A stretch of 64,000 nucleotides of DNA from a virus (taxonomy: Duplodnaviria; Caudoviricetes). The position numbers were made by a program, and so were the translations under genes. The notes under the pieces are model-generated. The model was not told the DNA's origin. It worked only from the letters and a program-made list of their open reading frames with translations, and made no database searches. The DNA lies in the IMG/VR virus record IMGVR_UViG_3300028048_000040, positions 278,329 to 342,328 of that record. The stretch is one strand, 5' to 3'. Each line of letters begins with the position of its first letter. Positions within the stretch are counted from its first letter, which is position 1. This document shows, piece by piece, positions 48,968 to 64,000 of this stretch.

Positions 48968-49870
48968 TTGGAACAAGAGAATCTAATTGGATGTATCCTA
49001 TGTGAAGAGACCTCTGCTAATGTTGAATTTAAAGTCAAAGGAGAAAATCGTAATGGTTTTCTTATTGCAGAAGGTATACTTCAGCAGGGTAATGAAGTAA
49101 ACAGAAATAGAAGATATTATCCTACAGAAGAATTGGTAGCTGCTATCAATTCTCCTAGATGTAAAGAATTGGTAGAATCTGGTAACCTTAAAGGTGAAGC
49201 TGGTCATCCAACTGATACTTCTCTTGCTAGACAGGCCAAAGTAGATCCTACTTTGGAACAGGTTTGGTATCAGAAACTTTGGATGGATGGAGATTATGTA
49301 ATGGGTCAATTTAGAGGCACTAATAATGAATTAGGCAGATCTTTTAATGAAGACCTTAGAGATGGACAAAGACCTTCATTCTCTCTTAGAGCTGTTGGTT
49401 CTTTGGTTAATGAGAATGGTAGAGCAACTGTAAAGAGAATGCAGATGATTACATATGATAGAGTTTATTTCCCATCTCATTCTAAAGCATATATGACTAA
49501 GCTTGTTACTACAGAAGCAGCAGTAGGTATGCCATCTCATGAACAGAGATATTATGATATTGATAAAGATGACTATTTCTTTGTAAAGAGTGATGAGATT
49601 AATAGATTAGCTGAACAAGGCAACTTTGTAGATTTGTCAGAGAGTGTAGTAACTCCTCTTAAACAAGAAGAAGTAAAGAACTATCTCTTATCTGAATCTG
49701 CTAATCTTAAACTTGCTTTAGATACCTTTGATCTATTATATGAATCTATGGAAGTAGCAAATGATCTAGGTACAATGAAAGTTAAGACTGCTTATGGTGA
49801 TACTCTATATCTAGATACAGAAACAGCTCTTAGAAAAGAAATGATACACGAAATCAATAACTATTTTTAA
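48968..49870 (+). CDS. Prohead core protease (T4 gp21-like)
   Basis: EGILQ..NRNRRYY, GEAGHP, SFSLRAVGS, ITYDRVYFPSH. Confidence 0.9.
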   Translation: MEQENLIGCILCEETSANVEFKVKGENRNGFLIAEGILQQGNEVNRNRRYYPTEELVAAINSPRCKELVESGNLKGEAGHPTDTSLARQAKVDPTLEQVWYQKLWMDGDYVMGQFRGTNNELGRSFNEDLRDGQRPSFSLRAVGSLVNENGRATVKRMQMITYDRVYFPSHSKAYMTKLVTTEAAVGMPSHEQRYYDIDKDDYFFVKSDEINRLAEQGNFVDLSESVVTPLKQEEVKNYLLSESANLKLALDTFDLLYESMEVANDLGTMKVKTAYGDTLYLDTETALRKEMIHEINNYF

Positions 49871-49887
49871 TCTAGGAGTTGATATAA

Positions 49888-50534
49888 GTGAAATGTATTA
49901 AGTTAGATTTTACGAAAAGTTTAAATCATAATTATGCTGATGATACAGACCTCACACTTGTGGGGGGGGGGGTAATTATCCAGTCTTAGTAGAAGATGAA
50001 GGAAGTACCTCTTTATATTTAGATCCTAGTTTACCATATCAAGGTTTAGAAGTTCCATATAGCGATAAGTATGATTTAAGTAACTATAATGATTTTTATA
50101 TAAAATTTAAATTTAAAGTAGCACCAGAAGCTATAAATTATCAATATACTACTGTATTTGGTTCTCATACTCGTAGTTACTCTTCATTAACAGCTCATTT
50201 GAATAATTCTTTTTATGGAATGGTTATGCAAGATCAATTTTCAGATGGTTTTGTATATTGGTCTGGTTGGCCAACAGATAATAAATATCATATTTATACT
50301 ATATACAGATTCAATAAAGAGATTTATTTTTATTTAGATAAGGAATTTATTGGTAAAGGATCTTCTGCTGGTAATTATTATCTAGGAACTAGTTTTGGTC
50401 TTTTCTGTATATATCCTAATGTAGGTGATCCTTGGCCGTTAAAAGGATGGGTTAAAGACTTCAGCTTCTATGTTAATGATATAGAAGGATTGATTAAAGG
50501 AAATTCTTTATTATATAACAATATTAAAACTTAA
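49888..50534 (+). pseudogene. LamG/concanavalin-like domain gene frameshifted at a G11 tract (phase-variable candidate)
   Basis: AGGAG plus GTG at 49888; stop at 49987-49989 as sequenced; G12 or G9 joins it to the frame open 49971-50534, giving about 215 aa. Confidence 0.75.
49962..49972 (+). repeat. Poly-G tract (G11)
   Basis: Eleven consecutive G in AT-rich DNA. Confidence 0.95.
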
Positions 50535-50582
50535 ATAGACAATACAACAATACCAATAGAGCATTAGCTCTATTGGTATTTA

Positions 50583-51380
50583 TTGTCTAAAAAACAATTA
50601 GATAAGATGAGAGATGAGGAGGTTACCATTATGGTAAGAGAAGGTAGAATTTATGTTATCGAAGGCCCAGATGGTTCTGGAAAATCCACTATGATTGGTC
50701 ATCTTGTTGATAGACTAAATAGTGTTGGTATTCCTTTTAAGAGTGTAGCTCTTCCTAATGAAAATTCTGAAATGTATAATCAAATAAGATTGTACTTAAG
50801 AAAAACCTATATAGATATAGATCAACTACAACAGTATATGCTTACTAATATGGATGACTGTTTTTCTAAGATAATCATTCCTACTATACAGATTGGAGAG
50901 AATGTTATCTTGGATAGATGGGCAGTATCTACTATTATCTATAATATGATTAATAATGGTAAGCTCATTACTGATGATTATCTTACATCTGATGGATGTA
51001 TTGATATGGAAAGAATAGTAAGAAAAAGCTCTTGTTTTGTTTGGCCCAATAAGATCTTTTATCTAAACACTCCTAAAAAAGTCTTAATAGATAATGCTAT
51101 TAAGAGATCTAAACTTTCAGCTGTAGAAATCTTTGATAAAGAAGAAAAGGTGGTAGCTTTATATAATGGATATCAAGATTTTTACAAAGCTATCACTAAT
51201 GAAAAACTTAAATTTAAAGGTTACCCTATATATGAATTTAAAACCTCTATAAATAAGGATAGACATATGTTGATAGATCCTAATCCTGTATATTATGCCA
51301 ATCCTTTTGATACTGGTCTATATATCTCTATGGAGGATAAGATATTTGATGAAATAGTAAAGGATGTTGGTGTAATATGA
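50583..51380 (+). CDS. tmk: Thymidylate/dNMP kinase (start probably 50631)
   Basis: VIEGPDGSGKST P-loop and VILDRW..STIIY motif. Confidence 0.88.
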   Translation: MSKKQLDKMRDEEVTIMVREGRIYVIEGPDGSGKSTMIGHLVDRLNSVGIPFKSVALPNENSEMYNQIRLYLRKTYIDIDQLQQYMLTNMDDCFSKIIIPTIQIGENVILDRWAVSTIIYNMINNGKLITDDYLTSDGCIDMERIVRKSSCFVWPNKIFYLNTPKKVLIDNAIKRSKLSAVEIFDKEEKVVALYNGYQDFYKAITNEKLKFKGYPIYEFKTSINKDRHMLIDPNPVYYANPFDTGLYISMEDKIFDEIVKDVGVI

Positions 51381-63823: not shown

Positions 63824-63873
63824 TAGGAATTAATGAAATGAATTTTGAAAATAAAATAACTCTTGCTCATATA

Positions 63874-63885
63874 GGGGGGGGGGGG
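63874..63885 (+). repeat. Poly-G tract (G12) in a short ORF starting at 63838
   Basis: ATG at 63838 reads MNFENKITLAHIGGGG then TAA; G11 would extend the frame to TAG at 63977-63979. Confidence 0.9.
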
Positions 63886-64000
63886 TAATAATTATCAATC
63901 TCTCTTATCTATATGGGTAAATAGATCATCATTCATTCTAAATAATAATTGGAATTATTGCCCTCCGATTATTGTTTAGGATGGTGTGAACTAATGAATT

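Follow-up and report, generated by a model that had tools for sequence, protein, structure and literature searches.

A run of eleven G residues near the 5' end of a lectin-like gene in an uncultured cattle-gut jumbo phage appears to be a designed frameshift point, and the gene is off as sequenced. We consider it probable that replication slippage at this tract gives rise to heritable, reversible on and off variants, and that the gene is a simple-sequence contingency locus of the kind found in Fletchervirus phages and in Campylobacter jejuni. The virus contig (IMG/VR; 342,328 bp, 31.6% GC) comes from source run X1, a bovine gut sample, and the window analysed here is its final 64 kb (64,000 nt); positions are those of the window, unless they are marked as genome positions. 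The kind of switch is already known; what is new is the phage group, the protein families, the sharp genome-wide signature and the modular cassette of leader and tract. To our knowledge, heritable on/off switching by repeat slippage has been experimentally proven in very few phages, with Fletchervirus and, more recently, T2 and T4 as the examples. In the present phage this signature stands out with unusual clarity, and it gates lectin-like proteins whose presence varies among close relatives.

Tract and reading frames of the gene

The gene lies on the plus strand, with a Shine-Dalgarno sequence AGGAG (49874-49878) 9 nt before its GTG start codon at 49888. A 5' leader of 24 codons and 2 nt, MKCIKLDFTKSLNHNYADDTDLTL (49888-49961), seen in the sequence and by comparison with a paralogue, runs into the G11 homopolymer (49962-49972), which is the frameshift point. 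The out-of-frame tail of the sequenced, off state (49973-49989) ends at TAG 49987-49989, and the entire frame from GTG 49888 comprises 33 codons. The productive frame (49971-50534, plus strand) consists of 187 codons and TAA (50532-50534) and encodes the body of the protein (P0001), modelled as a LamG/ConA-like jelly roll. 3' of the gene, a terminator search placed a 14-bp, terminator-like hairpin (50549-50580) that would end the transcription unit.

An earlier note, made from the letters of the window, had described the start at 49888 with its Shine-Dalgarno sequence, the G11 tract, the stop at 49989, and another frame open to 50534 that G12 or G9 would connect to the start, giving about 215 aa. 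All of these elements are found in the sequence, and translation gives restored products of 214 aa for G9 and 215 aa for G12; the peptide motifs that had been quoted as a LamG-like pattern are present as well. With G11, a stop codon follows 5 codons after the tract, and with G13 or G10 a TAA follows immediately. A change of one repeat unit in the G11 tract can toggle the gene between an intact full-length ORF and early termination. No ATG, GTG or TTG is found in the productive frame between the upstream stop at 49941-49943 and the tract, and the sequenced G11 allele is therefore off unless a frameshift takes place. Recoding of the TAG as a rescue of the sequenced frame is ruled out by a TAA at about 50077.

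Given the local base composition, a stop-free stretch of 187 codons would arise with a probability of about 5e-8, and the shuffled genome contained 1 stretch of such length among 52,638. By codon position, the GC content of the productive frame is 0.36/0.33/0.13, like that of real genes of this phage.

Seven poly-G tracts in the phage genome

The lengths of G-runs in the 342-kb genome are bimodal: there are 18 runs of G5 and 2 of G6, none of 7-8, and eight of 9-12. These eight correspond to 7 loci, one locus being duplicated at the contig ends. About 0.03 runs of G9 or longer are expected genome-wide, against the 8 seen, and shuffles of the window are expected to contain 0.1 runs of G8 or longer; runs of C never exceed 6 in the genome. 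Both the G11 tract and the 7 loci with G9-12 taken together place long G-runs inside coding sequence, at a level far above that given by composition. The earlier note had proposed a genome-wide count of poly-G genes, and it is this count that yields the seven tracts; the set as a whole had escaped it. Within the window it had reported one other long G-run, and this is indeed present as a G12 at 63874-63885. The tract belongs to a minigene (63838-63979, plus strand) that starts with ATG at 63838 and has a TAA directly after the tract; G11 would give a product of 46 aa.

All seven tracts are found on the sense (plus) strand, 9-46 codons after the start codon, and a clear Shine-Dalgarno sequence is present at the six starts that are firmly assigned (those of all tracts but the one at genome position 249578, whose start is tentative). 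Five tracts are followed by an intact ORF of 96-225 codons in one register and another by an ORF of 31 codons with conserved counterparts in relatives. TAA stands directly after six of the seven, in five cases as TAAT, and the productive register after the tracts reads mostly Gly-Asn. Owing to the TAA after most tracts, one wrong register ends immediately and the other within 5-16 codons. As assembled, the tracts at genome positions 274659 (G10) and 276128 (G12) are in frame, and those at 231029 (G9), 249578 (G12), 276801 (G11) and 328290 (G11; the gene studied here) are out of frame; the locus at the contig ends is out of frame at 342202 (G12) and in frame at 13 (G11). These observations support the view that the G11 tract is a designed frameshift point, not noise.

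As a general signature in viromes, G(n)TAAT finds no clear support: G10TAAT matched at least 115 stretches and the control pattern TAATG10 at least 116, and among the matches listed the shares with a 5'-ORF context were alike (28/93 for G10TAAT vs 25/97 for TAATG10). The motif is probably lineage-specific at most. Also among the matches listed, six unrelated viral contigs (L046, L047, L077, L090, L132 and L133; GC 36-40%) share a gene in which a 25-codon leader precedes G10 plus TAAT and an ORF of 221 codons, a further poly-G-gated family among virome sequences. A candidate shared promoter before two poly-G genes, TTTGACTT, was dropped, as it is not recurrent in the genome.

Variation in tract length

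The contig starts with 138 nt that recur as its last 139 nt (window 63862-64000), the two copies differing only in the tract, which is G11 at the start and G12 at the end; this difference, like the breaks of contigs at G-runs, could be due to homopolymer sequencing or assembly error. Because the ends differ by one G, IMG/VR lists a self-closing contig as linear; a circular or terminally redundant genome is masked by the length difference in poly-G. The closest relatives of this phage are G001 (IMGVR_UViG_3300021431_000076, 332,775 bp) and G002. In both of them, the orthologue of this sister tract (63874) is G10 and in frame, in a 44-aa gene whose peptide is conserved, and the orthologous locus overall is found with G10, G11 and G12. 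The contig of G001 itself begins with G17 (L028:1-17) and ends with G12 (L027:3265-3276); the break in its assembly falls within a poly-G tract connecting a 28-codon leader (M...ASAS) with an 88-codon ORF.

These comparisons bear on the central proposal of the earlier note, poly-G phase variation, which holds in so far as the tract appears designed and tracts of the lineage differ in length at one orthologous locus; for positions 49962-49972 themselves, the comparison is with a G12 paralogue only. The comparison with related genomes that it had suggested likewise reveals the length difference at the sister tract, and the studied gene is without an orthologue in those genomes. We infer from the sequences that slippage at the studied G11 tract is probably frequent and reversible. 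A break in the Logan contigs of the source run at 49971/49989 was rejected as a sign of length heterogeneity, since it is explained by a k=31 repeat that the gene has in common with a paralogue, the distinguishing bases being 49941 and 50019.

The off state could also be an artefact of homopolymer calling, the true tract being G12 and the gene intact. Long G-runs are miscalled by assemblers and Illumina chemistry, one locus was assembled with both G11 and G12 at the contig ends, and the paralogue with a near-identical leader has G12. We nevertheless think such a consensus error quite improbable: stable intact genes would mostly be called in frame, whereas only 7 of 23 calls are, in five assemblies from different samples. 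Moreover, even if this one call were wrong, the bimodal run lengths and the 5' placement would still point to designed hypermutable tracts.

Protein family and fold

Four of the seven poly-G genes are paralogues of about 205-225 aa, at 249.5, 274.6, 276.1 and 328.2 kb of the genome. Between two of the paralogues there is a fifth LamG gene, which has no G-run and matches Laminin_G_3 at 1.3e-14; its match to PHROGs annotated as 'virion structural protein' is at the level of the LamG domain only. The closest paralogue of the studied gene, P0006 (genome 276054-276725), is located 52 kb upstream and is in frame with G12. The productive-frame protein shows 43-46% identity to P0006 and to the homologue P0008, which together with P0010 makes up the only two close homologues outside the genome among 5.8 billion proteins. 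P0008 is in frame and reads LVGGGGNY. P0010 was called from the tract, and its start, MGGGNY, suggests from the protein alone that it stems from a G9 out-of-frame allele.

The studied protein (P0002) has no Pfam match at E<=1 and stays below every Pfam threshold, and it has no PHROG, NCBIfam or PADLOC match. Megablast and tblastn searches against 50,697 phage records returned no close relative of the gene; a search for related loci in viral and metagenome contigs by protein or family alignment gave no match, and nor did a degenerate DNA pattern of G9 plus the next ten codons. No LamG-family homologue was found in the listed G10TAAT/TAATG10 loci or in five other large contigs, and a sequence search of the PDB produced matches at E>0.1 only.

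A family profile, by comparison with 1.8 billion representatives, found 105 matches. Seven of eight more distant ones that were sampled carry Laminin_G_3 (PF13385); the homologue P0010, at 26.5 bits, falls short of the Pfam cut-off of 27.6 for this model. AlphaFold2 models of moderate confidence (pTM 0.66 for P0006 and 0.63 for the studied 187-residue body; pLDDT 57-59) are all-beta jelly rolls with 13-14 predicted strands. Foldseek relates them to ConA-like lectin domains with probability 1.0 and TM 0.5-0.66, and an ESM Atlas model (pTM 0.80) reaches TM 0.67-0.73 to LamG clusters, several of which are viral. Using the studied gene's own model, VIA-align yields Z 11-12 over 144-166 residues to LamG/LNS, pentraxin, sialic-acid-binding sialidase CBM40 and similar domains. 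Top matches to clostridial neurotoxins were discarded as a functional clue, since they concern a generic lectin-like subdomain at 10-15% identity. The profile, the AlphaFold predictions and the structural comparisons thus agree on a LamG/ConA-like fold of the protein, and the LamG/concanavalin call of the earlier note is borne out at the fold level; its word 'adhesin' extends the fold to a putative function, and the virion display that it proposed is likewise conjectural.

Laminin_G_3 and other ConA-like lectin domains (PF13385) are common in phage virion proteins and in bacterial surface enzymes. The jelly roll is alike in the protein described here, but it stands by itself as a single domain, with no fibre, anchor or catalytic module attached. 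The gene is located behind the prohead protease gene, outside the fibre cluster, and hhalign detects no relation to the 677-aa protein of that cluster (probability 0.3%). Judging from the fold, the protein would bind a ligand, probably a glycan of the host surface. Fold, family dynamics and precedent taken together point to a stochastically expressed lectin-like factor that would act on the host surface or on another host-dependent target.

Insertion site and exchange of the leader

Directly upstream of the poly-G gene lies the T4 gp21-like prohead protease gene (48968-49870, plus strand; Pfam Peptidase_S77 1.5e-15; phrog_207, head maturation protease, 6e-28), and no terminator-like site was found between it and GTG 49888. 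In blastn comparisons with G002 and G001 (L013 and L014), homology stops at 49870 and resumes at 50553, which delimits an inserted segment with the poly-G gene (49871-50552, plus strand). In both relatives, the stop codon of the protease gene is followed directly by a terminator hairpin and the thymidylate kinase gene, and in Logan contigs from three further studies (X2, X4 and X5) 24-46 different letters take the place of the sequence between 49870 and 50590 or 50567. The protease gene of G001 and G002 is 94.6% identical to that of this phage, and G001 holds at most one weak match to the LamG family. By these sequence comparisons, the poly-G gene is a recent insertion that is missing in the closest relatives. 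The thymidylate kinase gene (window 50583-51380) has only 81% DNA identity to G001, against 94.6% for the protease gene, such that divergence changes sharply at the insertion point.

A recent and dispensable LamG copy that was frameshifted and is now decaying would also be out of frame. In favour of such a dead duplicate, the gene is missing in the closest relatives and in three other samples, the LamG family is rare outside this genome, and one poly-G gene of G007 retains just a 30-codon ORF. Decay would, however, have to have placed its frameshift exactly in the G-run and nowhere else, and to have spared 187 stop-free codons with gene-like codon-position composition in DNA of 28% GC. Five other out-of-frame poly-G genes (in G000, the present phage, and G003) are equally intact, and we regard this explanation as very unlikely.

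The leader and the start of the tract are shared with the in-frame paralogue at genome 276054, with 27 of the first 28 residues identical. At the DNA level, the first ~135 nt of the coding sequence (leader, tract and 15 codons) are 96-100% identical between the two genes, synonymous sites included, and beyond this point identity drops to about 55%. Near-identity over ~135 nt followed by decay indicates that the leader-tract module was recently exchanged between copies.

The conserved C-terminus of the LamG cassettes, NLKVGD-stop, also serves as the AGGAG ribosome-binding site for the gene that follows. The cassette junction, AATTTAAAAGTAGGAGATT(G/A)A, is found at genome 276033-276056 and 276705-276729 (L011), and the NLKVGD-stop ending also occurs in the external homologues P0008, P0010 and P0086. 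We speculate that this junction may be a conserved site for the shuffling of cassettes.

Relatives and the register of their tracts

Phages that are related through the prohead protease contain from 0 to about 10 long G-runs each; the protease of this phage has at most 30% identity to any record of the phage collection. In G003, three small genes in tandem follow the pattern MSN...-G9/10-TAAT. Twelve genes in the more distant relatives G006 (L038-L040) and G007 (L032-L036) combine a leader of 8-11 codons, M(A/T)TTLKGTI, with G9-11, the peptide VTFSASPA (VTFSASPATVSIP) and variable C-termini. DUF285/BspA-type leucine-rich repeats were recognised in three of the four G006/G007 genes that were scanned, and 2 of the 12 poly-G genes are in frame. 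On the reverse strand of L033, a mid-gene tract joins an N-terminal part of 337 aa to a leucine-rich repeat part of 256 aa. As read from these genomes, the layout stays the same and the domain behind it differs, and every domain that could be recognised belongs to a ligand-binding type.

The tally over G000, G001, G003, G006 and G007 is 7 tracts in frame, 16 out of frame and 1 found in both states. About 30% in frame is the value for a random or freely drifting register, and nearly all of the ORFs are intact. The tally fits either a fast drift of the register or an expression that does not depend on the register in the DNA; it does not fit stable intact genes with occasional assembly error, nor plain decay. 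Out-of-frame tracts have one G too many in 12 of 16 cases and one too few in 4, about P=0.04 on the assumption of independence, which holds only in part for these tracts. Such an excess would not be expected from simple symmetric slippage; candidate causes are a mutational bias, a bias in homopolymer calling or, as a hint, +1/-2 recoding at GGG-TAA.

Expression independent of the DNA register would result if the phage RNA polymerase stuttered, or the ribosome shifted, on a fairly stable tract; a fixed small fraction of the product would then be full-length, and the tract would serve as an attenuator instead of a heritable switch. Registers that look random, with about 30% in frame, are what one would see if the register in the DNA hardly mattered. 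Where one of the 12 tracts with one G over is followed by TAA-T, GGG comes to stand beside a stop codon, and TAA directly follows 11 of 13 tracts in G000, G001 and G003. A layout of GGG and stop resembles +1 recoding sites such as that of prfB. Programmed frameshifts, for instance those of the tail chaperones G/GT and of dnaX, have a fixed sequence and length and a constant product ratio, often with a stimulatory structure. The poly-G genes are like these in that two frames are joined at a slippery run, but the length of the run varies between genomes and among orthologues (G10, G11 and G12), unlike at programmed sites, and the 100 nt downstream of the studied tract fold at z = +0.8, no better than shuffles, which speaks against a stable stimulatory structure. 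In addition, the direction of the required shift differs by gene (-1 here and at 276801, +1 at 231029 and 249578), and runs of G9-12 would be expected to slip in DNA too. We thus judge slippage at the level of expression to be an unlikely basis of the system, with a somewhat better chance than a consensus error or a dead duplicate.

Proposed mechanism and relation to known systems

The reading we favour, heritable switching by replication slippage, would work as follows. During replication of the phage genome, the polymerase would slip on the G-run and produce progeny with G10, G11, G12 and so on. The 24-codon leader would be in frame with the 187-codon body only if the number of Gs is a multiple of three (G9 or G12), resulting in the single-domain protein of 214-215 aa; in the other two registers, translation would end 0 or 5 codons past the tract. 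The gene itself would be an accessory copy that the phage gained recently, at a position behind the prohead protease gene. With seven poly-G-gated genes, four of them LamG paralogues, the phage population would be a mixture of on and off combinations, and we suggest that such switching could be a form of bet-hedging against variable hosts.

The C. jejuni genes cj1421, cj1422 and cj1426 encode sugar transferases and are replicated by a bacterium that is not known to have mismatch repair. In these genes, the poly-G tract is 5'-proximal, G9/G10 sets the gene on or off, and populations are mixed (PMC8713573). The tracts described here are similarly near the N-terminus; unlike those of C. jejuni, they are found in a virus and are probably replicated by its own polymerase.

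The Campylobacter-phage precedent invoked by the earlier note does exist (Sorensen et al. 2021, Cell Rep 35:109214; cited in both PMC10579305 and bioRxiv 10.1101/2025.10.21.683753). According to citing papers, Fletchervirus genomes contain several hypermutable tracts of G7-11, and frame shifts in receptor-binding proteins give rise to subpopulations (Sorensen et al. 2021). As far as these secondary accounts go, the two systems are alike in having several G-runs of about 7-12 in phage coding sequences, and the gated products here are ligand-binding folds. They differ in that the present phage belongs to another lineage, that of a 342-kb cattle-gut jumbo phage, in that its gated protein is single-domain and LamG-like, with BspA/DUF285 leucine-rich repeats in relatives, and in that the system is known here from sequence alone. 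T2 and T4 have contingency loci in which homopolymer repeats in ORFs cause reversible frameshifts as a means of bet-hedging (Gomez, Barrick and Waters, bioRxiv 10.1101/2025.10.21.683753). The T2 and T4 repeats are short, with 6 or more units that are for the most part A/T, and spread across all gene classes, whereas here the runs are long, made of G, bimodal in length and located only at the 5' ends of a small number of accessory genes.

If confirmed, the present case would imply that large gut phages in general rely on bet-hedging by contingency loci. A further gain would be a simple rule, a long 5' G-run followed by TAA, for finding genes that phages treat as host-dependent, and the genes found in this way would be candidates for host-range or anti-defence factors. 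For annotators it is a warning that gene callers split or truncate poly-G genes; the database protein for the gene studied here, P0009, is a fragment of 102 aa.

(AT)n repeats behind poly-G genes

Runs of (AT)n with n>=10 occur only four times in the genome, with n=11-15 (231732-231761, 250223-250252, 275271-275292 and 277140-277165 of G000:C1, all outside the window), and no such repeats were found in G003, G004, G006 and G007. Each of the four lies 19-40 nt after the stop codon of a poly-G gene, inside a mini-ORF of 14-26 codons, M(S/N)..D(IY)n, before the next gene. One of the three frames of the mini-ORF ends on or beside the ATG of the next gene (ATGA overlap), and the others stop 0-4 codons past the repeat. 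The repeats may constitute a second switch, based on a dinucleotide and acting through translational coupling.

Joining all of these elements, we offer as a tentative reading, clearly less likely than the slippage switch at the studied gene, that a clade of cattle-gut jumbo phages gates changing free-standing binding domains (LamG here, BspA/DUF285 leucine-rich repeats in relatives; up to ten genes per genome) by portable modules of a short leader, poly-G and TAA. In this lineage the modules would be combined with an (AT)10-15 switch, and each burst could then be a combinatorial mixture of surface-interaction or host-interaction proteins in at least 2^7 states. The excess of tracts with one G too many may, on this reading, mean that +1/-2 recoding at GGG-TAA accounts for part of the expression.

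In G001, (AT)n loci are located at L028:300-321, L027:2190-2211 and L025:841-860. One orthologous pair is (AT)13 in G000 and (AT)11 in G001, and both members of the pair are in the coupled frame.
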